Source: Acidaminococcales bacterium
GTDB lineage: Bacteria > Bacillota > Negativicutes > Acidaminococcales > JAISLQ01
Direction: 5' to 3'
Length of the DNA: 64,000 nucleotides
Assembly: GCA_031290885.1 (NCBI GenBank)
Contig: JAISLQ010000006.1
Span: 39,639 to 103,638 of the forward strand
Part shown: in pieces, positions 1-62,689 of the stretch
Layout of the letters: each line of letters begins with the position of its first letter
Numbering within the stretch: position 1 is the stretch's first letter
The notes under the pieces: generated by a model
The model's input: only the letters and a program-made list of their open reading frames with translations
Databases searched by the model: none
What the model was told of the DNA's origin: nothing
Translations under genes and position numbers: made by a program

Positions 1-650
1 GCAATGGGGCCGACCTGATCGAGCGAGGAAGCGAAAGCTACGCAGCCGTAACGCGAAACGCGCCCGTAAGTGGGTTTCAAGCCGACTGTGCCGGTAAAAG
101 CCGCCGGCTGGCGGATGGAGCCGCCGGTGTCGCTGCCCAGCGACCAGGCGGCTTCCCCGGCCGCCACGCCGGCCGCCGAGCCGCCGGAAGAGCCGCCCGG
201 CGTGCAGTCGGGCGCCCAAGGGTTTCTCGTCTTTTTAAAATAAGAAGTTTCGGTGGTCGAACCCATGGCGAATTCGTCCATATTTGCCTTGCCGATAAAT
301 ACGGCGTCGTTTTGTTTGAGTTTTGCGATGACCGTCGCGTCGTAGGGCGCGATGAAGTTGTCGAGGATGCGCGACGAACAGGTGGTTTTTACGCCTTTTA
401 TGCACAAAATATCTTTGATCGCGCCCGGAATGCCCGCCAAGGGGGCTATCGTCTCTCCCCGGGCGATTTTCGCGTCAACCAGGGCGGCGGTTTCCAGCGC
501 CGCCTGTTCGCACAAAGTAACGAACGCCCCGATTTTTGGTTCCACCTCAGCTATCCGATTCAAAAATTCCTTGGTCAGTTCAACCGAACTGACCTCTTTC
601 GCCCTTAACTTTTTGCCCAGTTCATGGGCGGGAAGGTTGCAAAGAGACAT
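1..650 (-). CDS. gatA: Glutamyl-tRNA(Gln) amidotransferase subunit A (N-terminal ~216 codons; the rest lies beyond the window start)
   Basis: Minus-strand translation from the ATG at 650-648 gives [38 protein letters not shown]. Further in it reads [52 protein letters not shown], the amidase signature. It directly abuts the gatC stop. It is absent from the ORF track because it runs off the window edge. Confidence 0.93.
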
Positions 651-950
651 TCAGGCGCCGCCCCCTTCCATGACGCGCGCTACCAGATAGCCGCCGCGAA
701 AGCGCTCGGGCGCGTTGGCCAATGCCTCCTCCTGCGTCAGGGGCGTCCCCGCGACGTCCTCGCGCATGACATTGCCGTAGGGCAGCACCTGCGCGGTCGG
801 CTCCACGTTTTCCGTGTCAAGTTTGCCGAGCATGCCGGCGTAGCCGAGAATGTCATTGAACTGCCGGACAAAAAGCTCCAAATTTTCCTCCGGTATCTCC
901 AGCCTGGCCAATCTGGCTATGTACTGAACTTCCTGCGCGCTTACCTTCAT
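651..950 (-). CDS. gatC: Glutamyl-tRNA(Gln) amidotransferase subunit C
   Basis: The 99-aa ORF MKVSAQEVQYIARLARLEIPEENLELF...VMREDV has typical GatC size and N-terminus. An AGGAGGG RBS lies upstream, and its stop adjoins the gatA start. Confidence 0.9.
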   Translation of the reverse strand: MKVSAQEVQYIARLARLEIPEENLELFVRQFNDILGYAGMLGKLDTENVEPTAQVLPYGNVMREDVAGTPLTQEEALANAPERFRGGYLVARVMEGGGA

Positions 951-1288
951 GGTTATACGCCCTCCTAAACTTGTCTTTAAATTTGCCCGGCGGCCGCCGC
1001 AAAAAAAACAAAAAGCGCGCGCTGCCGCAAAAACGGCGCGCCCTCGGCGGACGGCGGCGTGATTGCTTTAAGTATTATATCATAAATCGTCGCGCGTGAT
1101 AACCACCTGCTTTTTGGCCTTTATTAATATTAATGCAAAAGATATTGCGAGCTTCATGAATAATAATTCCGCGCAAGGCGATGAAAACGAATTTGCTTCA
1201 AGTTGTTTTTTACGGCTTTTATTTTCTATATTTGCTATATTAATATTATTATAAAAATTCTTTTTTTCAAATTTTTTATTTAAAACCC

Positions 1289-1318
1289 TTGACAATATTT
1301 TTTTATTTATAATATAAT
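1289..1318 (+). promoter_or_regulatory. Candidate sigma-70/SigA promoter for the DUF2294-like gene
   Basis: TTGACA at 1289-1294, an 18-nt spacer, then TATAAT at 1313-1318. It sits in a very AT-rich stretch about 40 nt upstream of the 1360 start. Confidence 0.5.
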
Positions 1319-1359
1319 AACGTATAAATAATACAGATGTTCGTTCTGAGAGGCCTGCA

Positions 1360-1713
1360 ATGAATGTCGAGGCTTTAGGCGGCGCACAGTTAAAGAAGAA
1401 GCTTTTCCGTATTTACAATGAAGTAAATAAAGATATTTACGGTTTCGGCGTAGTTGAAATTAAAATTGACATAACTGCCGATTTTATAATGTTCTTTGGC
1501 AAGCACAACCGTGTGCAAGCCCTGAAAGTATTGGAAAAAAGATATATTGTTCTCAAGCAATCTGTTGACTATGCGCTTTTCCAAGAATTTAAGTTGCTTT
1601 TGCGGCAGAAACTTAACGCGGAGTTGGAGTTGTATCCAGCAGCTATTTTGAGGGATTATGAAACCAGCTCGCAAATCGCCGTTACAGTAGTTGTCTTGGG
1701 GAATAATTTATAA
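1360..1713 (+). CDS. Small cytoplasmic protein, DUF2294-like (function unknown)
   Basis: The ORF is 117 aa. Its length and the alternating hydrophobic pattern (..IYGFGVVEIKIDITADFIMFF...LKQSVDYALFQEFKLLLRQKL...ILRDYETSSQIAVTVVVL) resemble my memory of DUF2294 proteins. It has its own promoter and terminator and is markedly AT-rich relative to its neighbours. Confidence 0.5.
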   Translation: MNVEALGGAQLKKKLFRIYNEVNKDIYGFGVVEIKIDITADFIMFFGKHNRVQALKVLEKRYIVLKQSVDYALFQEFKLLLRQKLNAELELYPAAILRDYETSSQIAVTVVVLGNNL

Positions 1714-1760
1714 AAAATGCAATGATGACTGTTTTTATAGCGTTTACGTTATGGGAAAGT

Positions 1761-1810
1761 CGTTATTAATACCGGTTAATCCCGGGTTTTAATAACGGCT
1801 TTTTGTTTTT
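1761..1810 (+). terminator. Rho-independent terminator after the DUF2294-like gene
   Basis: CGTTATTAA (1761-1769) pairs with TTAATAACG (1789-1797), followed by GCTTTTTGTTTTT. Confidence 0.6.
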
Positions 1811-1885
1811 GGCGGACGCCCGGCAACACGCCGCAATGGGAAAACAGGCAAAATGTTGCGTTATTTTTGACAAAGGAGCTTTGCC

Positions 1886-2455
1886 ATGCGCGTGGTAGTC
1901 GGCATAACCGGGGCGAGCGGCGCTGTCTATGCCTGCGCCTTGCTTGGCGCTCTCAACAGCCTGAATATTGACCTGGAGATTGTAGTGAGCGAAATGGGAC
2001 GGCGCGTGCTTTCGTATGAGTGCTCTGCCGGACTGGATGATTTAGCCCGATGGGGCGCGGTACACGACAACAGCGACCTTTTTTCGGTATTGGCCAGCGG
2101 TTCCGCAAAGTTTGACGCCATGGTGATAGTCCCCTGCTCCGCGAACACCTTAAGCGCCCTGGCCAACGGGCTCGGCGGCAGCTTGCTTTTGCGCGCGGCT
2201 TCCGTCGCGCTCAAAGAAAGGCGCAATCTTATCGTGGTGATGCGGGAAACTCCTCTAAACCTTATAATTGTTGAAAACATGGCGGCGCTGATAAAAGCCG
2301 GGGCGCTTATCCTGCCGGCGTCGCCGGGATTTTACACGCGGCCCGTAGAAATATGGCAGCTTGTGGGCGGCATAGTAGGGCGGATAATTGACAATCTCGG
2401 CATAGATCATGCTTTAGGCGAAAGGTGGACGGGCGGTGAATACAATGAGCCGTGA
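1886..2455 (+). CDS. ubiX: Flavin prenyltransferase UbiX (prFMN synthase)
   Basis: The 189-aa ORF carries MRVVVGITGASGAVYA, VIVPCSANTLSALANG, LKERRNLIVVMRETPL, PGFYTRP and a C-terminal ERWTGG. These are co-linear with E. coli UbiX motifs (GISGASGA, LKERRPLVLVPRETPL, PAFYHRP, RWQG). Confidence 0.9.
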   Translation: MRVVVGITGASGAVYACALLGALNSLNIDLEIVVSEMGRRVLSYECSAGLDDLARWGAVHDNSDLFSVLASGSAKFDAMVIVPCSANTLSALANGLGGSLLLRAASVALKERRNLIVVMRETPLNLIIVENMAALIKAGALILPASPGFYTRPVEIWQLVGGIVGRIIDNLGIDHALGERWTGGEYNEP

Positions 2456-3785
2456 TTTGCGCGGATTCTTGCTCAAACTGCAAGACAGCGGCCTTTTGCG
2501 CCGTGTAAAGAGGCGCGTCAGCTCTCAATATGAAATAGCCGCGCTTTTAAAGAACACCAAAGGCGAGATGCCGCTATGTTTTGAACAGGTAGACGACTAC
2601 AATTGTCCGCTGGTCGCCGGCATCGGCGGCACCCGCGAGTTGATGGCGCTGAGCGTGGGCGTTTCTCCCTGCGCTTTGCCGGAAGCTCTGGCTATGGCAA
2701 TCGCGGCGCCTTTGCCGGTGGAAACGGTCGTGTCCGCGCCTGTGCAGGAGCACGTGATAAAAGCGCCTTTTAACCTTGACGAGCATTTCCCTGTGTTAAG
2801 GTACAACCAGCTCGATCCGGCCGGATTTTTAGTCTCCGGCGTAATGGTAGCAAAATCCGTTTCCGGCGAGAAATTTTACACATCGATCAGAAGGATGCAG
2901 TATCTCGGCAAAAACCGCAGTTGCCTTTTGGTTACTTCTTACGAGATGCGAAAACAAATAAGCCGTTATGAGGAAATAAAAGAGCCTATGCCGGTAGCGT
3001 TTATGTTTGGCGTCAGTCCGGCGGTGGTTTTGGCGTCGCAGATAAGCACGCATTATTATAATGCCGATAAATTCGCGGTAACCGGCGCGCTTTTGGGAGA
3101 AAATAGCCGGACCGTAAAATGCCGGACGGTTGATTTGGCGGTTCTGGCAGACGCGGAAATGATCCTTGAGGGAAATCTTTATCCTTGGCGCAGAGAAAAA
3201 GAAGGCCCTTTCGGGGAACTCGGCGGTTATTACGGCGAAGTATCCGAGCAGCCGGTGGTGGAATTTAGCGCGCTTACTTTTCGAGACAATCCGATCGCGC
3301 AGACGATCTTGGCCGGAAGCTGCGAAGAAAAGCTGCCGGAGGCGATAGCGCGCGAAGTCGCGTTGCTGGCTGCGGTCAGTCAGACCGTGCCGTGCGTCAA
3401 GAAGGTGAACGTAACCATGGCGGGCGCGGGAAGGTTTCACGCGATCATACAACTTGACAAGCAAACCGGCGCCGACGGCAAACAGGCCCTATTGTCGGCG
3501 TTCAGCGCGGACAAGGATTTGAAACATGCGGTTGCGGTGGATATGGACGTAGACATTTTCAGCCCCGAAGACGTGGAATGGGCCATAGCCACCAGAGTGC
3601 AGGCCGATCAGGATGTTTTCATAATCTCCGGCGCCATGGGTTCGCCGCTGGATCCATCCCATCTTTTGCGGGGCGTAAGCGCAAAAATGGGAATAGACGC
3701 CACAGTGCCGATCGGCGGCCGCGGTTACGCCCGCACTCATATACCGGGCGAGGAGAATACGAATATCGAAGATTATATATCATGA
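2436..3785 (+). CDS. UbiD-family (prFMN-dependent) decarboxylase, substrate unknown
   Basis: The ORF is 449 aa. It has the N-terminal DLRGFLLKLQDSGLLRRVKR typical of the UbiD family and the metal/prFMN motif EGPFGELGGYYG. It overlaps the ubiX 3' end. The start is either GTG at 2436 or ATG at 2445. Confidence 0.85.
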   Translation: MNTMSRDLRGFLLKLQDSGLLRRVKRRVSSQYEIAALLKNTKGEMPLCFEQVDDYNCPLVAGIGGTRELMALSVGVSPCALPEALAMAIAAPLPVETVVSAPVQEHVIKAPFNLDEHFPVLRYNQLDPAGFLVSGVMVAKSVSGEKFYTSIRRMQYLGKNRSCLLVTSYEMRKQISRYEEIKEPMPVAFMFGVSPAVVLASQISTHYYNADKFAVTGALLGENSRTVKCRTVDLAVLADAEMILEGNLYPWRREKEGPFGELGGYYGEVSEQPVVEFSALTFRDNPIAQTILAGSCEEKLPEAIAREVALLAAVSQTVPCVKKVNVTMAGAGRFHAIIQLDKQTGADGKQALLSAFSADKDLKHAVAVDMDVDIFSPEDVEWAIATRVQADQDVFIISGAMGSPLDPSHLLRGVSAKMGIDATVPIGGRGYARTHIPGEENTNIEDYIS

Positions 3786-3800
3786 CGGCAGACGAAGGAG

Positions 3801-4094
3801 ATGGGCGCCGTGGCGGCGGGATTGTTGGAAACAAGGGGGCTGGCCGATGCTTTAGAGGCGCTCGATGCTATGCTGAAAGCTGCCGGCGTACGGCTATGCT
3901 TGATGAAACGGGTGGGCAGCGGCGTTGTTGCCATAGTGGTCAAAGGCGAGGTGGCGGCGGTGGAGGCCGCGGTAGAGGCCGGCGCGCGCAAAGTGTTGGC
4001 CGAGGGCGGGACATTGCTTTGTTCTTATGTCATCGCCAATCCTCATCCGGCATTGCGAAAATATCTGATTGGGGAGGCGAAAATAATTGAATGA
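3801..4094 (+). CDS. BMC-H shell protein (single Pfam00936-type BMC domain), divergent paralog 1
   Basis: The 97-aa ORF reads GLLETRGLADALEALDAMLKAAGV...KRVGSGVVAIVVKGEVAAVEAAVEAG...YVIANPHP. This matches the BMC-domain pattern (IET.G...A.DAM.KAA.V ... GSG ... GDV.AV.AA). The start may instead be GTG at 3810, because the GAAGGAG RBS abuts the 3801 ATG. Confidence 0.85.
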   Translation: MGAVAAGLLETRGLADALEALDAMLKAAGVRLCLMKRVGSGVVAIVVKGEVAAVEAAVEAGARKVLAEGGTLLCSYVIANPHPALRKYLIGEAKIIE

Positions 4095-4881
4095 GTTTGT
4101 GTCCGGAATAATAAGCGAATTGCTGTCGCCCGAGCATACGGGCGGGGAGATGCCGCCGCGCCCTAATTACCAGCGCGACAAAAACAAGAGGCGGACGGAA
4201 TGGGGAAACAATAACAAGCCGACCGGGCAAAGAGATAAATTTGCCGAAAACTACGCATTTTTGCGCCGTGCGGCTCTGACGCGCAATATACCGCCTTCGG
4301 TGGACGCGCCGGGCCTTAGGGCGGAAATCGCCGCGGCCGGCAGCCTTCCCTGGCGCGCGCTGATAATCGAGCAGCCAAGCGAATATTTGGCGCGCGATTT
4401 GAAACTGAGATGGAAGAATACGGACGCGATCGGATTGATCAAGGCGGAAACGGCCGGACTGTCCGCGTTGTTTGCCGTCGATGAGGCAATAAGCGCATTC
4501 GGGCTTACGAACAGCATATTCAGCTGCGATATTGAGCGCACGCAAAACTTGCATTTTTATTTCGCGGATGACAGCGCCACCGTGCGCAATGTCGTGGCAC
4601 GCTTCGCGCAAAAGGAAAACTTCAGCTTTTACATAGATGGCCTGCTGGTAAAGAAAAAGGTGTCCGCTTTTTTGAGCAGGTATATGAAAGTCAGCGCCCG
4701 CTTGCCGCTGGCAGCCCGGGAGTCGGTCGATGAATTGTCCATTTGGCCGAAGCTCAATAAATATTACACGGAAAACCGGGGCTGCCTTATAAATTTTAAA
4801 TTTGCAGCCGGCGCGCTTGTTGCCCAGGGGGACGAAGGAGAAATTTTAAAGGCGCTTGCGAGCGTAACCGGGGGGGCATGA
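4087..4881 (+). CDS. Uncharacterised 264-aa protein: N-terminal amphipathic helix, basic low-complexity linker and degenerate BMC-like domain(s)
   Basis: A TTG start at 4087 lies 9 nt after GGAGG (4073-4077) and overlaps the upstream stop. The N-terminus is MNEFVSGIISELLS, followed by PPRPNYQRDKNKRRTEWGNNNKPTGQRDKF. The middle segment AIGLIKAETAGLSALFAVDEAISAFGL...HFYFADDSATVRNVVARF aligns by eye to [26 protein letters not shown]...[18 protein letters not shown]. The C-terminal ALVAQGDEGEILKALASV is a second GD.G..-like motif. Its stop overlaps the next gene start in an ATGA. Confidence 0.6.
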   Translation: MNEFVSGIISELLSPEHTGGEMPPRPNYQRDKNKRRTEWGNNNKPTGQRDKFAENYAFLRRAALTRNIPPSVDAPGLRAEIAAAGSLPWRALIIEQPSEYLARDLKLRWKNTDAIGLIKAETAGLSALFAVDEAISAFGLTNSIFSCDIERTQNLHFYFADDSATVRNVVARFAQKENFSFYIDGLLVKKKVSAFLSRYMKVSARLPLAARESVDELSIWPKLNKYYTENRGCLINFKFAAGALVAQGDEGEILKALASVTGGA

Positions 4882-5165
4882 TTTTGCCTGGCAACGCTAT
4901 GGGTTTTATCGAAACGGTCGGTTACGCCGGCGCGCTTGTTGCGGCCGATTTCGCTTTGAAGAACGCGAACGTCAGGCTGGTAAAGATGGAACGGGTGATT
5001 GGAGCAAACAAGCTGCTGAGTCTGACCGTATGGCTGGAAGGCGAAGTGGCGGCCGTTCAGTCAGCGGTAGCTTCGGGAAAAACGGCGCTGGAGCAAAACG
5101 GCATGTTTGCCCGCGCACATGTCATACCCAATATGGACGCCGGCGCGCGCGCTTTATTCAAATGA
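4878..5165 (+). CDS. BMC-H shell protein, divergent paralog 2
   Basis: The 95-aa ORF reads MGFIETVGYAGALVAADFALKNANVRLV...ERVIGANKLLSLTVWLEGEVAAVQSAVASG...AHVIPNMD. This is a BMC-domain pattern with a longer, atypical pore loop. It is translationally coupled to the upstream gene through an ATGA overlap. Confidence 0.8.
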   Translation: MILPGNAMGFIETVGYAGALVAADFALKNANVRLVKMERVIGANKLLSLTVWLEGEVAAVQSAVASGKTALEQNGMFARAHVIPNMDAGARALFK

Positions 5166-5215
5166 TTGCAAAAACATAGATGCGCAAAAAAAGCAATAAA
5201 AGGGAGGAAAAGGAA

Positions 5216-5506
5216 ATGAAAGAAGCTTTGGGGTTAATTGAAACAAAAGGGCTGGTCGGGGCGATTGAAGCCGCCGACGCTATGGTCAAGGCGGCGAATG
5301 TGGAAATTACGGGCTATGAGAAAATTGGGTTCGGCCTTGTAACAATTATGATCCGCGGCGACGTCGGCGCGGTGAAAGCCGCTACCGACGCCGGCGCGGA
5401 CGCGGCCAGGCGGGTAGGGGAAGTTGTGTCCGTACATGTTATACCGCGCCCGCACAATGAAGTGGAAAAAGCCATTCTCCACTCCGCCGTCAAGCCCGAA
5501 GCCTGA
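5216..5506 (+). CDS. BMC-H shell protein, PduA/EutM-like canonical hexamer
   Basis: [85 protein letters not shown] is nearly co-linear with PduA. I chose the ATG at 5216, which follows an AAGGGAGGAAAAGG RBS. The ORF track begins upstream at 5180. Confidence 0.93.
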
Positions 5507-5544
5507 AAATGACCGTCCTGTAACCGGAATAAGCGGAGGGTGCC

Positions 5545-5808
5545 ATGAAAATAGGTCTTGTGATAGGTCAGGTCATCGCCACGCGCAAAGATGAAAAGTT
5601 AGTGGGCTGCAAGCTCTTGATAACGCAACCGTTAACGCCGGAGAAAAAACCGCGGGGAGAAACCGTCGTCGCGGTGGATTCCGTGGGCGCGGGAGTCGGG
5701 GAATATGTTCTTTATGTCTCCGGTTCAGTCGCGCCCAAAGCGCTGCGCGACTTTAATACGCCTATAGACGCGGTCATAGTCGGCATTATTGACAAAATAG
5801 AGTTGTGA
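5545..5808 (+). CDS. BMC-P vertex (pentamer) protein, EutN/CcmL/PduN family
   Basis: The 87-aa ORF MKIGLVIGQVIATRKDEKLVGCKLLI...VVAVDSVGAGVGEYVLYVSGS...PIDAVIVGIID matches the Pfam03319 pattern. A GGAGGG RBS precedes it. Confidence 0.88.
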   Translation: MKIGLVIGQVIATRKDEKLVGCKLLITQPLTPEKKPRGETVVAVDSVGAGVGEYVLYVSGSVAPKALRDFNTPIDAVIVGIIDKIEL

Positions 5809-5922
5809 AATGCCGCGCGTTCGGGAAACGGCGTGCGCCAATTTAAGCGGCGGGCAATTTTAAAGGTACAAAACTGTCCCTTAAAGGCCGAGAATATACC
5901 TGTGAGCTTGAAGGTGTGAAGA

Positions 5923-7770
5923 ATGAACGCTAATATAAACAAACGGGCGATACGCTTTCGCCGGATGATTGATACGCTATTGAGCGCGAACAAAAATGAG
6001 TGCGCCGACATAGTGCTGACCAACGGGCGTCTTGTAAATGTAATCACGCGCGAGATATATGCTGCCGATGTAGCGATCAAGGATGAATACATATTGCTGA
6101 CAGGCGATTGTTCCGGGGTTGCCGGCCCGCGCACCCGCATTATTGATTTATCCGGCGGATTCATCTGTCCCGGGTTCATTGACGCGCACATGCATTTTGA
6201 AAGTTCCATGCTTACTCTTTCCGAATTCAGTAAACTGTCGATCCTATCCGGCACGACCACTCTGATAGCGGATCCGCACGAGATAGCCAATGTAGCGGGC
6301 ATAGAAGGCATGCGCGCCATGATTGACGAAGCGGCCATGCTTCCTAATCGGATTCTTTTTACTATTCCCTGCATGGTTCCGGACGCTCCCGGGCTGGAAA
6401 CAGCCGGGGCCAGCGTAACGTCCGAAAACGTAGGGCTGCTCCTGGGACACGATTTGGTGCAAGGAATAGGCGAAATGCAGGGCTTTAGCAATGTAAAGCC
6501 GGTTTATGAACACGCGCCGTCGCTTATTGACGATTTATTGGCGAGCGTTTCTTTGGCTTCAGAGCTAAAAAAGACGGTGGAAGGCAACGCGCCCGGACTG
6601 TCCGGCCGGGATCTGGCGGCGCACATCCTGGCCTGCGGCGGCAACACTTCTTGCCATGAAACTACATCCAAGGCGGAATGTGTTGAAAAATTGAGAAACA
6701 ATATTACCGTGTTTATGCGCGAGGGTTCGACGCAAAAGAATATGGCCGAGTGCATAAAAGCGGTAACGGAAGACGGCCTGGACTCGCGCAAGTTGGTTTT
6801 GGCGACGGACGATATGCTGGCGCAGGATTTGCTTGATTGGGGACACATGAACGAGATTGTCCGAAGGACGATTGAGCAGGGCATCGATCCTGTGGAAGCG
6901 ATTCAAATGGCTACGATAAACGCCGCCGGGCATTTTGCTCTAAACGACATCGGGACGGTCGCGCCGGGGAAAATAGCCGATCTGGCGATTGTTGACGATC
7001 TTGCGAAAATGACGGTAAAAATGGTTTTGCTCAATGGCTCGGTCGCCGCCCGTGACGGCGAACTGCTACTTGCCATACCGCCCTACAAATACCCCGACCG
7101 TTTGAAACACACCATGCGCCGGGCGGACGTAAAATATGAAGATCTTTTTTGGCGGTCGGCTGAAGGCAACGAGAAAGTCGATGTGATAAAAGTCATTCCC
7201 AACCAAAACCTTACCGGCCGGGAGCAATGCGTCCTGCCGGTAAAAGACGGAATTATAGCGGCTGACCCCGGGCAGGACGCCATATATATTTTCGTTATAG
7301 AAAGACACGGCGCGGCCGGGCGGACAGGCAAGGGATTTGTCAAAGGGTTTGGGCTGGAAAAAGGCGCCATCGCTTTGAGCGTTGCGCATGACGCGCACAA
7401 TATAGTGGCTTGCGGCGTCAATTTGAATGACGTCGCGCTGGCGGCCAACCGGGTAATCAGAATGGGCGGCGGGGTCGCGCTCATTAACGAAAGCAAAGTT
7501 TTGGGGGACATGGCTTTGCCGGTAGCCGGCCTTATGACCGACGAACTGACCGGCCGCGAGGTTAGCGAAAAGATCGCCTCCTTGGAGCGGATAGCCGCCG
7601 AACAGCTTGGCTGCAAGCTGGCCGCGCCTTTTATGCACCTGTCTTTCCTGACGCTGGTAACCAGTCCGGAGCTGAAAATAAGCGACAAAGGGATGTTAGA
7701 TACGGTAAAACATGAGTTTTTGCATGGCGCGGAAAAAATTCCGCCCGAGCCGTTTATTTTAAAATCATAG
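5923..7770 (+). CDS. Adenine deaminase-family amidohydrolase (Ade-like; true substrate uncertain)
   Basis: The ORF is 615 aa. ADIVLTNGRLVNV...CPGFIDAHMHFESSML...GTTTLIADPHEIANVAG...GIGEMQGF...APGLSGRDLAAHI...SCHETT...FMREGSTQKNM is co-linear with the adenine deaminase family as I recall it. The segment before APG reads EGN, where I recall GH in canonical enzymes. Confidence 0.8.
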   Translation: MNANINKRAIRFRRMIDTLLSANKNECADIVLTNGRLVNVITREIYAADVAIKDEYILLTGDCSGVAGPRTRIIDLSGGFICPGFIDAHMHFESSMLTLSEFSKLSILSGTTTLIADPHEIANVAGIEGMRAMIDEAAMLPNRILFTIPCMVPDAPGLETAGASVTSENVGLLLGHDLVQGIGEMQGFSNVKPVYEHAPSLIDDLLASVSLASELKKTVEGNAPGLSGRDLAAHILACGGNTSCHETTSKAECVEKLRNNITVFMREGSTQKNMAECIKAVTEDGLDSRKLVLATDDMLAQDLLDWGHMNEIVRRTIEQGIDPVEAIQMATINAAGHFALNDIGTVAPGKIADLAIVDDLAKMTVKMVLLNGSVAARDGELLLAIPPYKYPDRLKHTMRRADVKYEDLFWRSAEGNEKVDVIKVIPNQNLTGREQCVLPVKDGIIAADPGQDAIYIFVIERHGAAGRTGKGFVKGFGLEKGAIALSVAHDAHNIVACGVNLNDVALAANRVIRMGGGVALINESKVLGDMALPVAGLMTDELTGREVSEKIASLERIAAEQLGCKLAAPFMHLSFLTLVTSPELKISDKGMLDTVKHEFLHGAEKIPPEPFILKS

Positions 7771-7779
7771 GCGCGGCCT

Positions 7780-8502
7780 GTGATTTGCGTGAAAGCGGGG
7801 ATTGCCGTGGACTATGAAATTATAGATATATCACAGGAAATTTACCAGGGAATGCCTGTTTTTTTCCCGCATCAGCCAACGATGATTTTCCCTAACGTAA
7901 GCCATGAGGAAAGCCTGCAAAAAATGGGTTTTATGTTTGCCACCAACAACCTGTTGCTCAGCGAACACGGCCCCACGCATACTGACGCGCCGTATGAATA
8001 TGACTTGAAAGGCGAGACAATCGACAGGCTTCCTTTGGAAAAGTTTTTTGGCCAAGCTTTTTGCGTTGATTTAAAACATATCGGCGAAGATAGTTTTATT
8101 GGCAAGGAAGATTTGCGGCATGCGTTGGAAAAAGCAGGCTACAAAATCACCGGGGGCGACATTTTGCTCATGCACACAGGGCATTTTGCGCGCAATTACG
8201 GCACTGACAAGTGGCTTGCAAACTACACGGGCCTAAATTACGAAGCGGCGGCATATCTTGCGAAAAGTGGCATAAAAATGATTGGCGTCGACGCGCCTTC
8301 GGTGGACAAAACCGGCGACATGAATTACTCCGCCCATAAAGCTTGCCGTGAATACGGCATGCTTAATACCGAGAACCTGTGCAATCTTGATAAACTTGTC
8401 GGCAAAAAATTTTTGTATATAGGCTTTCCGCTGCGAATAAGAAACGGCACGGGTTCTCCTGTCAGGGCAGTGGCGGTCATCGGCGGCGAAAGGAGGCCAT
8501 GA
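7780..8502 (+). CDS. Cyclase-family protein (kynurenine/aryl-formamidase or isatin-hydrolase-like, Pfam04199-type)
   Basis: The ORF is about 231-240 aa. It shows IIDISQEIYQGMPVF, SEHGPTHTDAPYEY (compare the HxGTHxDAPxH motif), ILLMHTG, IKMIGVDAPSVD and GMLNTENLCNLDKL. The start is uncertain, either GTG at 7780 or GTG at 7807. Confidence 0.75.
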   Translation: MICVKAGIAVDYEIIDISQEIYQGMPVFFPHQPTMIFPNVSHEESLQKMGFMFATNNLLLSEHGPTHTDAPYEYDLKGETIDRLPLEKFFGQAFCVDLKHIGEDSFIGKEDLRHALEKAGYKITGGDILLMHTGHFARNYGTDKWLANYTGLNYEAAAYLAKSGIKMIGVDAPSVDKTGDMNYSAHKACREYGMLNTENLCNLDKLVGKKFLYIGFPLRIRNGTGSPVRAVAVIGGERRP

Positions 8503-9119
8503 AGATGAGATTGAAAAAAGAAATAACCATAAAGCCCTATTCCGGCGCGGCGCTGGAAGTGCTGGAAGGGGAGGAGCTTTGCATAATTGATTTGCAGGGG
8601 CAGCAGGTAAGCGATTTTATCTGTTTCAATAAAGACGACCTAAAAGAACATGTTTCGCCCGTACATATGCGCTCGTCGCTCTCAAGCCTGCGCCTTAAAA
8701 TAAACGACTTGCTGTACAGCAATTACCGCTCCGGCATGATGAGGCTGATAGAAGACACCGTCGGCAGGCATGACTTTTTCTTTCCGGCTTGTGATTGCTA
8801 CAGGTATAAAGTGGATTTCGGCGTGGAAAATCATCCCAACTGTTATGATAACTTTATGAAGGCGCTGCGCGCATTCGGCATCCAGCCGGAAACCTTGCCC
8901 GATCCCATCAACTGGTTTATGTACAACGATGTGGACGAAAACGGCGATTATGCAATTCGGCCGCCGCTTTCCAAACCGGGCGATTATGTGCGGCTGCGGG
9001 CGCTCAAAAACTGTATTGTGGCTTGTACGGCCTGTTCACAGGATTTCGTGCCGGTAAACGGCATGAAGGTAACGATGATAAAATTGCAGATATTTAGCGC
9101 CTCTTCGCCAGGCCCTTGA
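8499..9119 (+). CDS. DUF1989-family protein (urea-carboxylase-associated / carboxyguanidine-deiminase-like fold)
   Basis: The ORF is 206 aa. It shows GAALEVLEGEELCIIDLQGQQVSDF, FFPACDCYRY, HPNCYDNFMKAL, PDPINWFMY and GDYVRLRALKNCIVACTACSQD. These match my memory of the DUF1989 (PF09347) pattern. It overlaps the upstream gene in an ATGA. Confidence 0.7.
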   Translation: MKMRLKKEITIKPYSGAALEVLEGEELCIIDLQGQQVSDFICFNKDDLKEHVSPVHMRSSLSSLRLKINDLLYSNYRSGMMRLIEDTVGRHDFFFPACDCYRYKVDFGVENHPNCYDNFMKALRAFGIQPETLPDPINWFMYNDVDENGDYAIRPPLSKPGDYVRLRALKNCIVACTACSQDFVPVNGMKVTMIKLQIFSASSPGP

Positions 9120-9550
9120 GCTTCTTCCCCCGGGGAAGGCTGGCCAGGCCGCCGGCCGATTTTTGCGGCACGGAATTCATCTGATTCTTCTTGAACCAAT
9201 CGCCAAGCCTATCCCCGTCCATTGTGCCGGCATATTGCCGCTTGCCCCGGCCGCAACAGCTTGCGCCAATCCCAAAGGCTTATTTTGGTTCGGCGAAGGC
9301 ATGTCCGGCTTTCTTGAATATAATCGCTCTTTTCCGATAGTCGTTGTTATAAACATATATAAAAGAAGGAGCGGCGGAAAAATGCGTGGGCTTTCGCGTG
9401 CGGCCGATACATGCGGCGGAAGAAACTTGGGGAGCGGATTTTGTTTAAGATTAAGTCCTTCTTCCGAAAGGGGTGATTATATCGTTAAAAATAGGCGGCG
9501 CAGCGGGTTTGCCTATCCGGACTTATAAAGAAAAATGGAGGAATGTGAAG

Positions 9551-10426
9551 ATGTTTACAGTTTTCAAAAAAAGTTTATGGTTGGCTTTGTTGACAATATG
9601 CATGCTTGTTATGGCAGCTGGCTGCGGAGGCGGCAATACCTCGTCTCCGGCCGCCAAGCCCGCCGCGCCGCAAGCGCCGGCGACCGGCATCCGGCCGCCT
9701 GACACGCTCACGGAAAAAGGCTACCTTACTTTTGGCACCATCTCAACCTTTCCGCCTTTTGAGTATATGAAAGACGGCAAACTGGTGGGTTTTGACGTGG
9801 ATTTGGTAGACGCTTTGGCCAAAGAGATGGGCTTGAAAGCAAAAAATACCGTCATGAATTTCGATGGGCTGATTCCCGCTTTGCAGGGCGGACGTTTTGA
9901 CATGATCGTTTCCGGCATGTACATCAAACCGGAAAGAAGAGAAATGGTCGATTTTATCGGCTATATGAAACTGAGCAATGTCATTGTTACCAGAAAAGGC
10001 GATAACAAAGGCATCAAATCAATGGATGATTTGTCCGGCAAAAAAGTAGCCGTGGTCAGAGCCGGCTATACCGAAATACTTTGCCGCGAACAGAACAAAA
10101 GGCTGGCGGAACTGAAAAAGCCTTTGATTGATATTTTGCTCCTGCCGACGGAAAACGATGTCGTCCTGGCGACCGAACAGGGGCGCGCCGATGCGTTTTT
10201 GCATTCGGCTCCCGGCGCGGCGCATTTGAGCGAACAAAAACCCAATGTTTTTGAAGTGCCCGTTACCATGCCGCCGAACGCGGAAATAGGCATAGCGACC
10301 CGCAAAGGCAATGACAAGACCCGGGCCGCGCTCGAAGCGGCGGTCAAAAAACTGGTCGCTGACGGCACTTATGAAAAACTCATGCAAAAATATCATTTGC
10401 CGCCGGAACTTAATTATTTCAAATAA
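9551..10426 (+). CDS. ABC transporter substrate-binding lipoprotein, polar amino acid (PBP family 3) type
   Basis: I chose the ATG at 9551, which follows an AAATGGAGGA RBS; the ORF track starts at 9473. It has a signal peptide with a lipobox (LVMAAGC). LTFGTISTFPPFEYMKDGKLVGFDVDLVDALAKEMGL...FDGLIPALQGGRFDMIVSGM is typical of His/Gln/Arg-type binding proteins. Confidence 0.85.
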   Translation: MFTVFKKSLWLALLTICMLVMAAGCGGGNTSSPAAKPAAPQAPATGIRPPDTLTEKGYLTFGTISTFPPFEYMKDGKLVGFDVDLVDALAKEMGLKAKNTVMNFDGLIPALQGGRFDMIVSGMYIKPERREMVDFIGYMKLSNVIVTRKGDNKGIKSMDDLSGKKVAVVRAGYTEILCREQNKRLAELKKPLIDILLLPTENDVVLATEQGRADAFLHSAPGAAHLSEQKPNVFEVPVTMPPNAEIGIATRKGNDKTRAALEAAVKKLVADGTYEKLMQKYHLPPELNYFK

Positions 10427-10543
10427 AAAAGCATGCTTTATAGTCTGCGTGCAACCGGCGCGGCGCGAAAGGGCCCGCGGCGGCCTGCCGCCAGGGACCT
10501 TTTGTGTCCGGGCGGGCGCGCTGTGGCGCGGGGAGGGTTGGCT

Positions 10544-11251
10544 TTGGACAATATAGTGAAATATGTTTTTTCGCCGCATTTTCTGATGGGGGCGGTCAAT
10601 ACGCTCGAGTTGTGCATAATGGCGCAGATAGCCGGAGTATTGATAGGTTTTCTGTTGGCTTTGGCGAAAACTTCAAGGTGCGGCGCGGTGCGGTTTTTCG
10701 CTGACGGGTACATCTGGCTGTTTCGCGGCATTCCCGTCTTGTTGCTGCTTATTTTTGTATATAACGCGCTGCCGCAATTCGGCATCAGGCTCGATGAGTT
10801 TAAGTCCGCTTTAGTGGCCCTTATGTTCAACGAAGCGGCGTACATGGCGGAAATAATACGTTCCGGGCTTAGTTCCGTGGGCGCGGAGCAGCAACGGGCC
10901 GGTTACGTCCTCGGTTTGACAAAGTTTCAAATAATGCGCTATATTACCATGCCACAGGCTTTACGGGTAATAATACCGCCTACGGCCAACCAGTTTATCG
11001 GAATGCTCAAACTTTCGTCACTGGCGTCGGTCATTGGCTTCGGAGATTTACTGCTGGTCGCCCAGCAGGTGGCGGGCGAGAATTTTGACTATGTTAATAC
11101 GCTGGTGGCGGTGGCCGTATATTATCTTGTTTTTACCGCAATTTTTACTGTTGTGCAGATATTTTTGGAAAAGAGCATGGATATTTCGCGCAAAGCAAAA
11201 TATGCGGCGGAAAAAGCGGGAAAGAACGCCCAAGACATCGCGGCGGCGTAA
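10544..11251 (+). CDS. ABC transporter permease, polar amino acid type
   Basis: NTLELCIMAQIAGVLIGFLLAL...LFRGIPVLLLLIFVYNALP...FNEAAYMAEIIRSGL...ITMPQALRVIIPPTANQFI are HisM/GlnP-family motifs. The ORF track starts at 10433 with an Arg/Pro-rich, non-membrane N-terminus. I prefer the TTG at 10544, 6 nt after GGAGGG, but the start is uncertain. Confidence 0.8.
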   Translation: MDNIVKYVFSPHFLMGAVNTLELCIMAQIAGVLIGFLLALAKTSRCGAVRFFADGYIWLFRGIPVLLLLIFVYNALPQFGIRLDEFKSALVALMFNEAAYMAEIIRSGLSSVGAEQQRAGYVLGLTKFQIMRYITMPQALRVIIPPTANQFIGMLKLSSLASVIGFGDLLLVAQQVAGENFDYVNTLVAVAVYYLVFTAIFTVVQIFLEKSMDISRKAKYAAEKAGKNAQDIAAA

Positions 11252-11266
11252 CAGGAAATACAGAGG

Positions 11267-12016
11267 GTGATTTTGTTGAACGAGGATAAGTTGCTGCTGC
11301 GCGTTGACGGCGCCGGGAAAAAGTATCACGGAAATACTGTTCTGAAAGATGTTTACATGAGGATTAACCAGGGCGAAAGATTAGTGATGATCGGCCCTTC
11401 CGGTTCCGGCAAATCCACCTTGCTCCGTTGCATGGCCGGGCTGGAAAGGGTCGATGAGGGGTGCATCTGGTATGACGGGGGGTATATAGAAAATCTCGAT
11501 CTTAAAACCCGCGCCGAAATCGGCATGATCTTTCAGTCATTCGACTTGTTCCGGCATTTGACTGCTATAGAAAACATAATGCTGGCACCATTGAAAGCGC
11601 AGAAAAGAAAATATGACGAAGTAAAAAAATCGGCGCTGGCCTTGCTGGAAAAAATGCATTTGGCCGACCATGCGAACCATTACCCCATGCAGCTTTCAGG
11701 CGGCCAGCAACAGCGCGTGGCCATTGCCAGGGCTTTAGCCATAAATCCGCGCCTTATGCTCTTTGACGAGCCGACTTCTGCGCTTGATCCGGAAATGACG
11801 GCTGAAGTGCTTGACGTGATTATTGATTTGGCGCAAAGCGGCATGACTACCGTGATTGTAACGCATGAAATGGAATTTGCCAAACGCGTAGCCGACAGGG
11901 TAGTGTTTATGGAACAAGGCAAAATAATTGAAACAATCGCCGTTGGCAACATCAACGAAACTATCGCCGGCAATAAACGGATAAACCAGTTTTTCAACCA
12001 GATAACCCGTTATTAA
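11267..12016 (+). CDS. ABC transporter ATP-binding protein, polar amino acid (GlnQ/HisP-like)
   Basis: It has Walker [10 protein letters not shown], the signature [15 protein letters not shown], Walker [13 protein letters not shown] and the H-loop VTHEM. Confidence 0.9.
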
Positions 12017-12260
12017 AGCATTCTCGGCGGCAAGGACGGCAGACGAGCCCCCATGCCGTCCGGCGTACCCGCGCAGCAGAGATGTCGCCGCCGCCGCGCC
12101 CCAAAAACAAACTCGCCGCCCCTTTCTTCGCGGATGTTCCGGCAGCTGAGGCTGACGGAGCGCGATTGGCGGTTTCCGGCGGCGGCCGCAAAGCGGATGT
12201 TCGGCGGCTTCCCCAAAAAGCAGGTGTTCCCGGCAAGCCGCAAGGCTTGCTAATTGCCTC

Positions 12261-12956
12261 TTAGCTTTCTTTGACCTTTCCGTCCGTGGTCAATGTAACG
12301 ACTTGCCAAGGCAACAATTTGCCCGATTTTTTGAGCGCCGCCGCAGCGGCCCGCTCGATGCCGCCACAGCACGGGACTTCCATGCGGACAACCGTGACGG
12401 ACTCGATGTCGTTTTCGGCGATGATTTCGGCCAGTTTTTCGCCGCAATCCCCGCCGTCAAGTTTCGGGCAGCCTATGAGCGTGATTTTTCCCCGCATATA
12501 CCCGGCGTGGAAATTTGCCCGCGCGTAAGCGGCGCAATCAGCGGCGATGAGCAGGTTTGCCCCGTTAAAGTACGATGCGCCCGCAGGCGCGAGTCGGATT
12601 TTTACCGGCCATTGGCACAGCTCGCTTTCGCCGGGCGACGCAGGCCCGGCCGCCTTAGGCGTACGGGGCAGCGCGCGGGCGTTCAAGCCAGGGCAGCCGT
12701 CCGCGCGCCGATGTTGCATGTTTTTTATGTGCTTTTTGACCTGCTCTTCGTCATACGCCGCCGCTTCACGCTCCACAAAGGCAACCGCCCCTGTCGGGCA
12801 GGCCGGCAGGCAATTGCCAAGCCCGTCGCAGCAATCGTCCCGGAGAAGCTTCGCTTTGCCGCCCACCATCCCGATTGCCCCTTCATGGCATGCTTCGGCG
12901 CACAATCCGCACCCATTGCATTTACCGATGTCTATTTCAATGATCTTGCGCTTCAT
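12261..12956 (-). CDS. 4Fe-4S dicluster domain-containing protein
   Basis: I chose the ATG at 12956, which follows an AGGAGG RBS; the ORF track starts at 13061. The N-terminus carries CNGCGLCAEACHEGA and CDGLGNCLPACPTGA ferredoxin motifs. The C-terminal domain is Cys-rich (IGCPKLDGGD, VPCCGG). Confidence 0.75.
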   Translation of the reverse strand: MKRKIIEIDIGKCNGCGLCAEACHEGAIGMVGGKAKLLRDDCCDGLGNCLPACPTGAVAFVEREAAAYDEEQVKKHIKNMQHRRADGCPGLNARALPRTPKAAGPASPGESELCQWPVKIRLAPAGASYFNGANLLIAADCAAYARANFHAGYMRGKITLIGCPKLDGGDCGEKLAEIIAENDIESVTVVRMEVPCCGGIERAAAAALKKSGKLLPWQVVTLTTDGKVKES

Positions 12957-13069
12957 AAATTGCGCCTCCTGGTCTTTGGGAGTTGACTGCATTATGGCAT
13001 AATCGGCGATTCGGTTGCATTGCCAACGTAAGTGCCGGGCGTCCGGGCCGCCAAAGGGCAAGGCTTCCT

Positions 13070-29042: not shown

Positions 29043-29462
29043 CTAACCTTCAGAACGAAGCCTTAGCATCCGCAGGCGCGAAAAACATAGAAACGCGCCG
29101 CTGGCCGCCAAAGCGGCCGCGCCGATGTTCGAGAAAAAAGCGGTTTTCGCGCAAGAGCCGCCGTGCGCGCAAATGCCTGACGCCCAGCTTTGCGGCAAAG
29201 CCAATATAAACACGCCGACGGCGAAAACAAAAAATCCGGCCGCGGCCTTCGCTTCGTCCGTGCGCAGGGCGAAAAGGCCCAAAGACGCGATCGCCGCCAG
29301 CAAAGCGAACAGGAACACTGCCTGATAAGTATAATGGCAAGGCATGGGCCGGCCGTTGCCAAGCCCGGAACAGATCGGGAAAAGGCGCGCTATGGCCAGC
29401 AGCCACAAACTGATCAAAAGAGAAAATGCCGACAGTCCTTTATACACCTTATTCATTGCCAT
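29043..29462 (-). CDS. DUF4418-like integral membrane protein
   Basis: The ORF is 139 aa with 4 predicted TM segments. The conserved-looking PMPCHYT motif and a C-terminal Cys pair (CAHGGSC) match my memory of the DUF4418 (M.CHWT) family, which is often found next to FtsX-type ABC systems. Confidence 0.55.
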   Translation of the reverse strand: MAMNKVYKGLSAFSLLISLWLLAIARLFPICSGLGNGRPMPCHYTYQAVFLFALLAAIASLGLFALRTDEAKAAAGFFVFAVGVFILALPQSWASGICAHGGSCAKTAFFSNIGAAALAASGAFLCFSRLRMLRLRSEG

Positions 29463-29471
29463 GCCATCCTT

Positions 29472-29648
29472 TCATTTGTGCCCGCCGGCCGCGTGCGGAA
29501 GCGGCGCCGCGGCGGGCGCGCCGTTTGTGTGCCGGGCTGCCCCGTCCGGCAAAGTTTTGAAACCGGGGCGGTTGTAACCGCCGTACAAGATCAAAATGCC
29601 GGCAAGCAAAATGAGCAGCCCGGAAAAGAAATACTTTTCGATTTTCAT
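29472..29648 (-). CDS. Small single-TM protein with a His/Ala/Pro-rich tail (58 aa)
   Basis: MKIEKYFFSGLLILLAGILILYGGYNRPGFKTLPDGAARHTNGAPAAAPLPHAAGGHK. The ATG at 29648 follows an AAAGGAGG RBS. It is the first gene of the DUF4418/ABC operon. It is an internal start within track ORF 29472..29819. Confidence 0.5.
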   Translation of the reverse strand: MKIEKYFFSGLLILLAGILILYGGYNRPGFKTLPDGAARHTNGAPAAAPLPHAAGGHK

Positions 29649-30088
29649 CAACAATCGCCTCCTTTTTTTCTCTTGGCGCCAAGCCAGGGCATGTCCGCGC
29701 CATTGTTGAACGCGCTGTTTGGGGGCGTATTTTCCGCCCGGCTTTGTACGGCAAGGCGCGTCCGGCTCCAAATCTCCCGCATTCTTATGCGGGCGCGTTT
29801 TATGTCCGGAAAAACGCAAAAGGCCGGATATGCGCGTTACATCCAGCCTTTAGATTTCTAATCGGCTAAAATATATCATATTTATATATTTAGTATGTTT
29901 TATTGTAGGCGATTTTTTCCCTTTTGTCAATAAGGAACTTCTAAAATTCCCATTTTGCCGAGGCCGCTTTCCAAGTTTGTTCGCGGCGAATTTGTAAATT
30001 TTTTGTAAACAGCCAGCCATGCGCCTGATTTTTGCGCATAAACGAACATAATAGCGGCAATGACGCATTTGGACGTTGGAGGGACGAG

Positions 30089-47806: not shown

Positions 47807-49078
47807 TCATTCCAGACAATGAAAGCGGGCTTGGTGGTTTTTCTTTATTTCTTCGATCAGGGAAAATTCAGCGATCAGTTTGTGAAAATCAATGCCGGCG
47901 GCGGCTATTTTTGCGTCGGCGTCCGCGCCCCGGCCGGAAATGCTTTTGGTTATGTTGCATACGGCCGTGTACAAATGATCGGAAAAAACGCCGTGTTTGT
48001 AGGACAATACGGCCTCAATGAGCGCCGCCAGGTTGTCGCAGCATTTCAATATAACCCCGTCCACCGGCTTCAGCCCGCCGCGGTCATATTCCGGCGGTAT
48101 GACGAACTCCCCTTCCAGTTTTTGCGGCGCGCCGTCTTTGACGTAGCGCGTGTCAAATTCATTTTCGGTGAAATATCTTAATTCGCCGTGCCAGGATGCC
48201 GGCAAGAGGGGGAATATTTTTTCCCGCATGTACCCGCTTTCAATTTTTTTGATTTTGTCCTCAATTTCGGTGGCCGAGCGTTTGACCGGCGAGATGATGT
48301 CGCGCGTCAGCACTTCGGGCAGATCATGGAAGAGGCCGCACAGATAGTCGTTTACGATCCGCTCGTCGGAGGCGCCGAGCGCGTGGGCGCAAAAATAGCC
48401 AAAGATAGCGACGATCAGCATGTGCCCCATGACGGAAGTTTCCGGTATGCGCGGCGACTGCGCCCAGCGTTTTTGAAAGCGCAATTGCCCGGCCAGGGCA
48501 ATGAACTTTTGTATTTTGCCGCTGCCGGACAGTTTCTGTACGCCGGCAAGATCGCCATAGTCCTTTATCTGCGATAAAATCTCCCTGCGCGTATCTTCAA
48601 TGCCGATCACCACGCCCCTGTTCATGCGGTAGATGATGCGAAACTCCCAATTGGTGGCAAGGTAATGGGCGGCTTTCAGTATGCGTTTTTCACGGGCCAG
48701 GCATTTTGGCTCGGCGAAATAAGCTTTGAAAGCGTCAAAGAAGCCGCCGCCCAAGCTGCGGAGCGCCGGTTCAAGCCGGCCGGTCACCCACCCGTCGATC
48801 TCCCGTCCGTTCCCGCGCATTAATTCATAATAGACAGGCGGCTTTATATCGGTAACGACCGTGCGGTGCAAGAACTCAAACAGCCCGCCTTCGATCAGGG
48901 CGCGCCAGTTGACGGCGTTTTTCCGGCGTTCCTCATATTTGGCCAGAACATAGGCGATGACCATCTTGTGCGCCTGTTTGTCCAACTCCGTAAATCCTTG
49001 GTGCGGGTGCAGGTGATCTTTCCAGCGTTGGGAATTGGCCGCATCGTAAATCTTCTCAATCAGCTCTTTGGTCAGCAT
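47807..49078 (-). CDS. HD-domain phosphohydrolase (about 423 aa, function unknown)
   Basis: HMLIVAIFGYFCA...GLFHDLPEVLTRDIISPVK is an H...HD motif similar to YfbR-type nucleotidases, with a large N-terminal helical region. The ATG at 49078 overlaps the upstream gene's 3' end. Confidence 0.7.
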   Translation of the reverse strand: MLTKELIEKIYDAANSQRWKDHLHPHQGFTELDKQAHKMVIAYVLAKYEERRKNAVNWRALIEGGLFEFLHRTVVTDIKPPVYYELMRGNGREIDGWVTGRLEPALRSLGGGFFDAFKAYFAEPKCLAREKRILKAAHYLATNWEFRIIYRMNRGVVIGIEDTRREILSQIKDYGDLAGVQKLSGSGKIQKFIALAGQLRFQKRWAQSPRIPETSVMGHMLIVAIFGYFCAHALGASDERIVNDYLCGLFHDLPEVLTRDIISPVKRSATEIEDKIKKIESGYMREKIFPLLPASWHGELRYFTENEFDTRYVKDGAPQKLEGEFVIPPEYDRGGLKPVDGVILKCCDNLAALIEAVLSYKHGVFSDHLYTAVCNITKSISGRGADADAKIAAAGIDFHKLIAEFSLIEEIKKNHQARFHCLE

Positions 49079-50628: not shown

Positions 50629-50902
50629 GATGTCCCTCCGCCAATTTTCAGCTTTTGCCAGGAGAGCGCGAAAGCAAAAACTTCTTTGCCCATCACGCCG
50701 CTATTTAAAGATAATTCGGCTGCGGCGGGCAAATTCCTGCTTTGAGTGGCACTATCGCGAAAAGCCAAATGCCATTAAATGCCTTATGTAAAAAACCTTG
50801 CATATTCGCGCAAAATGCTTTAATATTATAAAAAGCGGTAAGCATTAAGTTTGAATGTAAATAAAGTATTACTTAACTCATTGCAAGGCGGAGGGGCGAT
50901 AA

Positions 50903-62639: not shown

Positions 62640-62689
62640 CGGATTCGGCGGCAAAACGCCAAAGCGGCTATTTTTAAGGAAGTGATTTG

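Follow-up and report, generated by a model that had tools for sequence, protein, structure and literature searches.

What might a bacterial microcompartment (BMC) process if its locus encodes no aldehyde-dehydrogenase core? The question is raised by a gene island in a 64,000-nucleotide stretch of contig JAISLQ010000006.1 from an Acidaminococcales bacterium (assembly GCA_031290885.1; the whole stretch is called the window below). In this island, shell-protein genes are accompanied by genes for UbiX, for a UbiD-family decarboxylase dependent on prenylated flavin mononucleotide (prFMN), and for three C–N hydrolases. An initial annotation had described it as a microcompartment locus without such a core and had guessed at the classical clostridial purine fermentation as its function. 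Our best explanation, which we consider probable, is that the island is a reduced member of the BUF1 or 'Xau' type, an aldehyde-dehydrogenase-free BMC tied to anaerobic purine degradation by the xanthinase (Rabinowitz) route. The shell would then surround the later half of the pathway, in which decarboxylation and deamination are followed by opening of the ring, and this copy has lost the neighbouring candidate genes for the two preceding steps, which open the xanthine ring and hydrolyse the ureido group.

Locus type and relatives

Predicted proteins were assigned to families by Pfam and NCBIfam profile searches, and all positions follow the numbering of the whole stretch (Table 1). The ten co-directional genes annotated between 1886 and 9119 were all recovered at their coordinates on the plus strand, the overlap of ubiX with ubiD and both ATGA couplings (4878 and 8499) were confirmed in the sequence, and the profiles bore out the families UbiX, UbiD, BMC-H (three copies), BMC-P, adenine-deaminase type, cyclase and DUF1989. 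The UbiD protein is 100% identical to NCBI MDR3348140.1, and the island proteins likewise match entries of a metagenome-assembled Acidaminococcales bacterium at 100% identity (MDR3348138 to MDR3348149, on a 125-kb contig). A search of all non-spurious open reading frames (ORFs) of at least about 200 amino acids (aa) across the 64 kb gave no PF00171, PF06130 (PduL), Fe-dependent alcohol dehydrogenase or RuBisCO, so that the absence of an aldehyde-dehydrogenase core holds for the entire window.

A locus of this description has been catalogued. Sutter et al. 2021 (PMC8217296) list 46 BUF1 and 55 BUF1B loci, 101 together, as lacking aldehyde dehydrogenase, and their table of hidden Markov models (HMMs) contains HMM01977ubiD_1_buf1, HMM13382deam_1_buf1 (Adenine_deam_C), HMM00857isoch_1_buf1, HMM00860tp_2_buf1 (Xan_ur_permease) and HMM04199cycl_1. 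The same work cites a proposed xanthine role for BUF1, describes BUF1 members outside the typical Firmicutes that do not have the full enzyme set, and assigns shell proteins from Gottschalkia acidurici and G. purinilytica, both obligate purine fermenters, to BUF1. BUF1/BUF1B loci also appear in Axen 2014. In the reconstruction by Ravcheev et al. 2019 (PMC6620236), the locus serves anaerobic utilisation of xanthine ('Xau') in a microcompartment that follows the Rabinowitz pathway, and the type is called a third functional paradigm, one after carboxysomes and aldehyde-based metabolosomes. The clostridial 'xanthinase' route goes back to Rabinowitz and Pricer 1956. According to Li et al. 2025 (PMC12507026), who refer to Tong et al. 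2023 (Cell Chem Biol 30:1104), a 'xanthinase pathway' cluster has recently been identified in members of the Clostridia and Bacilli.

Among the features of BUF1, the window shows the shell genes, the absence of PF00171, UbiD with UbiX, and PF13382 with PF04199 (Pfam equivalents of the catalogue models, supported by synteny). Isochorismatase is present as a remnant only, and tblastn over the window gave no xanthine/uracil permease. The purine-fermentation guess of the initial annotation is the same as that published for the locus type (PMC6620236, PMC8217296), in line with the riboswitches, xanthine permeases and PucR regulator found in relatives. As type, proposed substrate and pathway are all in the literature, the novelty implied there falls away, and the island is not a new kind of organelle.

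Relatives were collected from genome-collection and metagenome scans, and the counts given here are among the matches listed. Comparison of UbiD neighbourhoods across genomes revealed that the order UbiX-UbiD-H-(BMC-T-like)-H-H-(190–290-aa protein)-P-AdeL-Cyclase-DUF1989 (H, BMC-H; P, BMC-P; AdeL, adenine-deaminase-family amidohydrolase) is shared by more than 60 genomic and metagenomic loci, with UbiD identities of 42–74%. The hosts include at least about 45 Bacillota species (Paenibacillus, Cytobacillus, Neobacillus, Virgibacillus, Carboxydothermus and Syntrophothermus among them) and Brenneria; at least a dozen further loci lie on metagenome contigs, and one locus bears an mmgR element. The metagenome scan yielded no UbiD closer than 67% among the matches listed, and those listed by the genome-collection scan included neither the MAG of the window nor the classical purine fermenters. 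As a proxy for placement in the BUF-specific shell clades of the catalogue (for example P_moss1_BUF and H_treeGreen/H_seafoam), BMC-H 3 and BMC-P are 79–90% and 50–65% identical to their counterparts in syntenic loci. Of the alignment columns that hardly vary among about 45 loci, the window proteins keep 93–97% (88 of 91 for UbiD, 200 of 209 for AdeL).

The purine link comes from genes and RNA elements of these relatives. Almost all of them add an allantoinase/dihydropyrimidinase-like amidohydrolase with an adjoining RutB-like isochorismatase-family hydrolase, as well as an M20 enzyme of the allantoate-amidohydrolase/carbamoylase type, and many carry a xanthine/uracil permease (Xan_ur_permease) or a Bmp-type ATP-binding cassette (ABC) system. 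Purine riboswitches (RF00167) were detected in three of the seven relatives scanned (L002, 17394–17496; L006, 17345–17447; L084, 995–1096), the one in L002 directly 5' of the amidohydrolase–isochorismatase pair. Furthermore, a gut-metagenome locus, L090 (OKRU01002760.1, 6435–14078), encodes in order a glycine transporter, a PucR regulator, M20, DUF1989, AdeL, Cyclase and a Bmp-type ABC permease, without shell genes. To judge from this arrangement, the three hydrolases and M20 appear to form a unit that can function with neither a microcompartment nor a UbiD gene nearby. The N-terminal helix of AdeL was considered as an encapsulation peptide and rejected as evidence of targeting, because the homologue in the shell-less L090 has the same helix.

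Among the matches listed, the closest UbiD relatives (66–72%) include those of Brenneria sp. 4F2 (L001, Proteobacteria), L083 and L084/L085. L083 bears an mmgR (suhB-family) small RNA at 7078–7154 according to Rfam, which we take to be alphaproteobacterial. As the UbiD proteins of L001 and L083 are nearer to that of the window than are Bacillota relatives at 50–56%, the comparison points to the island having moved as a whole between phyla.

Reduction and maintenance of the Acidaminococcales copy

The initial annotation had tentatively mapped the whole purine pathway onto the island. This is not supported, since the candidates for ring opening and ureido hydrolysis known from full loci are not intact here: the 64 kb contain no allantoinase-like amidohydrolase, no M20 enzyme and no intact isochorismatase, and tblastn matched no purine permease in the window. 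What is left of the isochorismatase was picked up by tblastn with queries from L002, L083 and L084 (E 5e-13 and 1e-6) and spans residues ~26–106 of 183. Moreover, only 39 nucleotides (nt) separate BMC-H 3 and BMC-P, where other loci have the 190–290-aa gene. That gene is present in almost every locus and is missing from the window, from the sister genome described below and from one further lineage, L087; its product may be a core-organising protein that was dispensed with in this lineage. The 190–290-aa proteins (e.g., L084, 6084–6668) have no Pfam match and share a conserved C-terminal motif, I-I-T-P-L-A-R-D. The nearest UbiD relatives (70–74% identity) keep the full enzyme set or the M20 gene.

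A sister Acidaminococcales metagenome-assembled genome (MAG), GCA_031275255.1 (L169), carries the island at the same place, after gatCAB; the two copies are 87.6% identical in nucleotide sequence, agree in their reduced gene content and have the same binding-protein gene behind DUF1989. All eleven genes of the island (the ten above and a further first gene) are intact in both MAGs, with ratios of nonsynonymous to synonymous substitution rates (dN/dS) of 0.035–0.26 at dS 0.23–0.59. The ratio is 0.12 for ubiX, 0.10 for the first gene (strong purifying selection) and 0.17 for the flanking gatC. The spacer after DUF1989, which holds the isochorismatase remnant in the window, is unalignable between the two MAGs, and the remnant was not detected in L169. 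An assembly chimera at the junction of DUF1989 and importer was rejected, as the same junction is present in the independent MAG. The shared layout and the low dN/dS values therefore demonstrate that the reduced locus is real and kept by selection, and no assembly artefact. Since the reduced copy is under purifying selection in two genomes, it suggests what the indispensable core is at the level of the gene cluster, namely the shell, UbiX/UbiD and the three downstream hydrolases. The core steps would be those through labile 4-aminoimidazole and 4-imidazolone. With eleven genes in ~7.8 kb, the island is a compact candidate for heterologous reconstruction and, as a naturally minimal form of a known type, moderately interesting.

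Proposed pathway and rival readings

In the proposed scheme, UbiX would produce prFMN for UbiD, which would convert 4-amino-5-imidazolecarboxylate into labile 4-aminoimidazole within the shell. AdeL would deaminate this amine to 4-imidazolone, the Cyclase-family enzyme would open the ring to formiminoglycine, and DUF1989 could catalyse a further amidine C–N hydrolysis, for example the deimination of formiminoglycine. In full loci, the natural candidates for the first two reactions (opening of the xanthine ring and hydrolysis of the ureido group) are the allantoinase-like amidohydrolase together with the RutB-like hydrolase or the M20 enzyme. What the reduced locus would retain within its shell are precisely the reactions that pass through labile intermediates. 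The nearest solved structure for UbiD is HmfF (6h6v, E 1.6e-97, full length) and that for AdeL is 3nqb; the Cyclase protein matches 4cz1, 4j0n and 5nna, with isatin hydrolase and kynurenine formamidase among its relatives, and DUF1989 matches 3oru and a trimethylamine N-oxide demethylase. None of the Protein Data Bank (PDB) matches of these four enzymes has a purinolytic enzyme name.

Several points weigh against the purine reading of this copy. The window has no purine signal of its own: it contains neither a purine permease nor, in the 64 kb, a xanthine dehydrogenase, and Rfam gave no riboswitch in positions 1–13000 at E up to 1. The roles proposed for the three hydrolases derive from family chemistry, and AdeL reaches 468.3 bits with the adenine deaminase model TIGR01178, just below the cut-off of 472.5. 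Encapsulation of these enzymes is not known to have been demonstrated by experiment for any BUF1 locus, nor is it known to have been established which enzymes a BUF1/Xau shell encloses, or for what reason.

With the upstream genes lost, the aminoimidazole carboxylate would therefore have to be made by enzymes encoded at other sites of the genome or be taken up from the surroundings, in the latter case possibly through the adjacent ABC importer. This transporter was correctly annotated as polar-amino-acid type (SBP_bac_3, BPD_transp_1 and ABC_tran were all matched between 9551 and 12016). Its position directly behind DUF1989 holds for gene order, with a terminator-like hairpin and the isochorismatase remnant lying in between. 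A doubtful but conceivable rival is that the lineage has no upstream enzymes at all and that 4-amino-5-imidazolecarboxylate, its ureido precursor or a close analogue is imported by this transporter and fed into the shell. The importer indeed stands where other loci have a purine permease or a Bmp transporter, it comes directly after DUF1989 in both Acidaminococcales MAGs despite the hairpin, the upstream genes are not in the 64 kb (one being left as a remnant), and the substrate would be an amino-acid-like zwitterion. However, the hairpin divides the shell operon from the importer, the binding protein is of a generic polar-amino-acid type that scores below every NCBIfam equivalog cut-off, and an importer is associated in this way in none of the ~70 other loci. 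Equally tentatively, and as something we would not expect to be true, the lineage could have turned a purine-degrading BMC into a minimal scavenging organelle. Its genome would be without xanthine-opening enzymes, and an intermediate of the aminoimidazole-carboxylate type, released by neighbouring purine degraders, would be imported by a recruited amino-acid-type ABC transporter and processed entirely within a five-protein shell with four enzymes. If true, such an organelle would mark out the smallest encapsulated core with which the BUF1 type can do.

Other readings were also considered. The reduced core might act on another heteroaromatic carboxylate, of non-xanthine origin, whose breakdown the three hydrolases would complete. 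The window has no purine-specific element, its transporter type departs from the family norm, and its UbiD is HmfF-like, in a family whose enzymes take many heteroaromatic acids. Nevertheless, we consider such a substrate improbable: the four enzymes are 51–74% identical and syntenic to those of loci with purine riboswitches, permeases and PucR, and they keep nearly all family-invariant residues. AdeL could also be a true adenine deaminase, channelling adenine into purine breakdown instead of acting on 4-aminoimidazole, as its near-threshold TIGR01178 score and the name given to it in one source would have it. Against this, the order P-AdeL-Cyclase-DUF1989 is fixed in every locus, AdeL accompanies M20, DUF1989 and Cyclase even outside shells, and the hypoxanthine formed would need a xanthine dehydrogenase, which the window does not contain; an adenine-deaminase role is thus decidedly improbable. 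Finally, the pseudogene remnant and the several missing family genes might be taken to mean that deletion of the genes for the upstream steps inactivated the pathway and that the remainder is eroding. Such a decaying relic is hardly credible and largely refuted by the dN/dS comparison, as eleven genes are intact in two genomes at ratios like that of gatC and the spacer has diverged past alignment. The reduced BUF1/Xau locus remains our preferred reading.

Gene inventory, shell proteins and comparison with known systems

Table 1. Features of the island and the adjoining importer (whole-stretch numbering)
Feature	Position	Strand	Basis
Promoter-like site, TTGACA-18-TATAAT	1289..1318	+	12/12 consensus matches; 5' of the island's first gene
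Small conserved first gene, 117 aa, MpsC/DUF2294-like	1360..1713	+	homologues match PF10057
Hairpins then U-run, terminator- or attenuator-like	1737..1812	+	RNAalifold consensus, four lineages
UbiX flavin prenyltransferase	1886..2455	+	PF02441 3.4e-39; TIGR00421 185 bits, above cut-off
UbiD-family prFMN-dependent decarboxylase, HmfF-like	2445..3785 (alternative start 2436)	+	PF01977/PF20695/PF20696; TIGR00148 296 bits, above cut-off
BMC-H shell protein 1	3801..4094	+	PF00936 6.8e-22
Divergent tandem-BMC (BMC-T, PduB/EutL/EtuB-like) protein, 264 aa	4087..4881	+	predicted structure, Foldseek
BMC-H shell protein 2	4878..5165	+	PF00936 2.2e-20
BMC-H shell protein 3, EutM/PduA-like	5180..5506	+	PF00936 2.5e-30; EutM model 121.5 bits
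BMC-P vertex protein	5545..5808	+	PF03319 5.7e-32
Adenine-deaminase-family amidohydrolase (AdeL), 615 aa	5923..7770	+	PF13382 and PF01979
Cyclase-family metal hydrolase (kynurenine formamidase / isatin hydrolase family)	7780..8502	+	PF04199 6.3e-33
DUF1989 protein (family of carboxyguanidine deiminase)	8499..9119	+	PF09347 3.8e-50
Terminator-like GC-rich hairpin and T-run	9138..9157	+	7 pairs, 6 of them G-C; 3' of DUF1989
Isochorismatase-family pseudogene remnant	9287..9525	+	tblastn; two frames, in-frame stops
Lipoprotein substrate-binding protein, polar-amino-acid-type ABC importer	9551..10426	+	PF00497 (SBP_bac_3) 9.5e-39
ABC importer permease	10433..11251	+	PF00528 (BPD_transp_1); TIGR01726 HEQRo_perm_3TM above cut-off
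ABC importer ATPase, GlnQ-like	11267..12016	+	PF00005 (ABC_tran); GlnQ model 278 bits, below cut-off

The locus was annotated to begin with ubiX. Its true start is the gene of 117 aa upstream, whose homologue opens most related loci; the window copy of this protein has no Pfam match, and nine of 14 positional homologues match PF10057 MpsC (best E 1.1e-9). Between this gene and ubiX sits a hairpin pair followed by a U-run. Its RNAalifold consensus extends over four lineages with five pairs changed on both sides, its folding z-score is –3.3, and Rfam gave no match for the element. In L086 and L087 the equivalent hairpin ends only ~10–20 nt 5' of ubiX, which suggests that the element is an attenuator with regulated read-through rather than a plain terminator.

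The shell set comprises three BMC-H proteins, one BMC-T-like protein and one BMC-P protein. When the shell ORFs were compared with the BMC HMMs, three matched PF00936 and one PF03319, whereas the 264-aa ORF had no Pfam or NCBIfam match, PF00936 included. Its designation as 'BMC-like' is nonetheless right, owing to its structural matches. The AlphaFold (AF2) model has a confidence score (pLDDT) of ~80–90 over residues 86–264, and Foldseek against the PDB placed EtuB best (E 6.5e-7), followed by PduB and EutL (down to 3e-4), with probability 1.00, TM ~0.45–0.51 and 213–228 aligned columns for these residues. An hhalign comparison of the 264-aa family with BMC-H gave a weak match (E 1e-4). By its predicted structure, the 264-aa protein is a divergent tandem-BMC shell protein with two BMC-fold domains per chain. 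Within residues 1–85, a short amphipathic helix is accompanied by the invariant motif RPNYQR and by ~70 aa of disordered linker. The family is tiny, with 55 representative relatives among 1.84 billion proteins. The pore motif of BMC-H 3 is KIGFG (residues ~47–51), and K(I/V)GFG is conserved in ~44 loci; its Phe stands where PduA has Ser40. BMC-H 1 carries KRVGSG.

The island is bordered by gatC on one side and a ferredoxin gene on the other, and its G+C content of 0.49–0.56 is somewhat below that of the adjoining downstream 10 kb (0.555–0.60). Upstream, gatC and gatA lie on the minus strand; an 'Amidase' considered there as a locus member was rejected, being GatA with GatC alongside and thus housekeeping. 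The importer is followed by a ferredoxin-domain gene, a pseudouridine synthase gene, proS, ispG, rseP, dxr, cdsA, uppS, frr, pyrH, tsf, rpsB and groEL, and further downstream by leuS, comEC, holA, ilvB, ilvA and others. Judged by these predicted functions, the remainder of the window consists of housekeeping genes. An amidohydrolase at 57191–58636 was rejected as a displaced xanthinase because it is of the PRK09061 type (amidohydrolase family protein) and unrelated to the allantoinase-like enzymes that full loci encode; it adjoins a CbiM-type cobalt transporter and a metallo-beta-lactamase-fold protein. The ORFs at 49068–50708 (546 aa), 61635–62699 (354 aa) and 29190–29861 (223 aa) matched no Pfam family at E up to 1e-4.

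How does the island compare with known systems? The signature enzymes, acylating aldehyde dehydrogenase, PduL/Pta and alcohol dehydrogenase of the canonical PDU, EUT and GRM metabolosomes are not present in the window. Its 264-aa protein shares with PduB, EutL and EtuB the fold predicted for residues 86–264, with a sequence similarity under Pfam detection, and differs from them in an N-terminal stretch of ~85 residues with its own invariant RPNYQR motif. The N-terminal extension of PduB is reported to tie the enzyme core to the shell. HmfF, a 2,5-furandicarboxylate decarboxylase, is the closest solved relative of the window UbiD and likewise a heteroaromatic-acid decarboxylase, but serves a different pathway and, unlike the window enzyme, is not associated with a microcompartment. 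The DUF1989 family includes the carboxyguanidine deiminase CgdAB (Schneider et al. 2020, as cited in PMC11271267), a precedent in which nitrogen is removed by hydrolysis from an imine or amidine; CgdAB is a UAAP1/UAAP2 pair, whereas the window DUF1989 protein is a single subunit that scores far below the cut-offs of those models.

The clostridial xanthinase pathway likewise combines a prFMN-dependent decarboxylase with C–N hydrolases and is reported in Clostridia and Bacilli, which are also hosts of related loci; for the two hydrolyses with which it begins, the window offers no intact candidate gene. The abstract by Tong and co-workers reportedly names four hydrolases of different families in addition to the decarboxylase. 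Compared with BUF1/Xau, the window has no intact isochorismatase, allantoinase-like amidohydrolase, M20 enzyme or xanthine/uracil permease and no 190–290-aa protein between BMC-H 3 and BMC-P, and it carries a polar-amino-acid-type ABC importer instead. What it shares with BUF1/Xau is a microcompartment locus free of aldehyde dehydrogenase, with UbiX/UbiD, an adenine-deaminase-C enzyme and a cyclase among BMC-H and BMC-P genes, and the gene order of more than 60 loci, here in a Negativicute of the Acidaminococcales.

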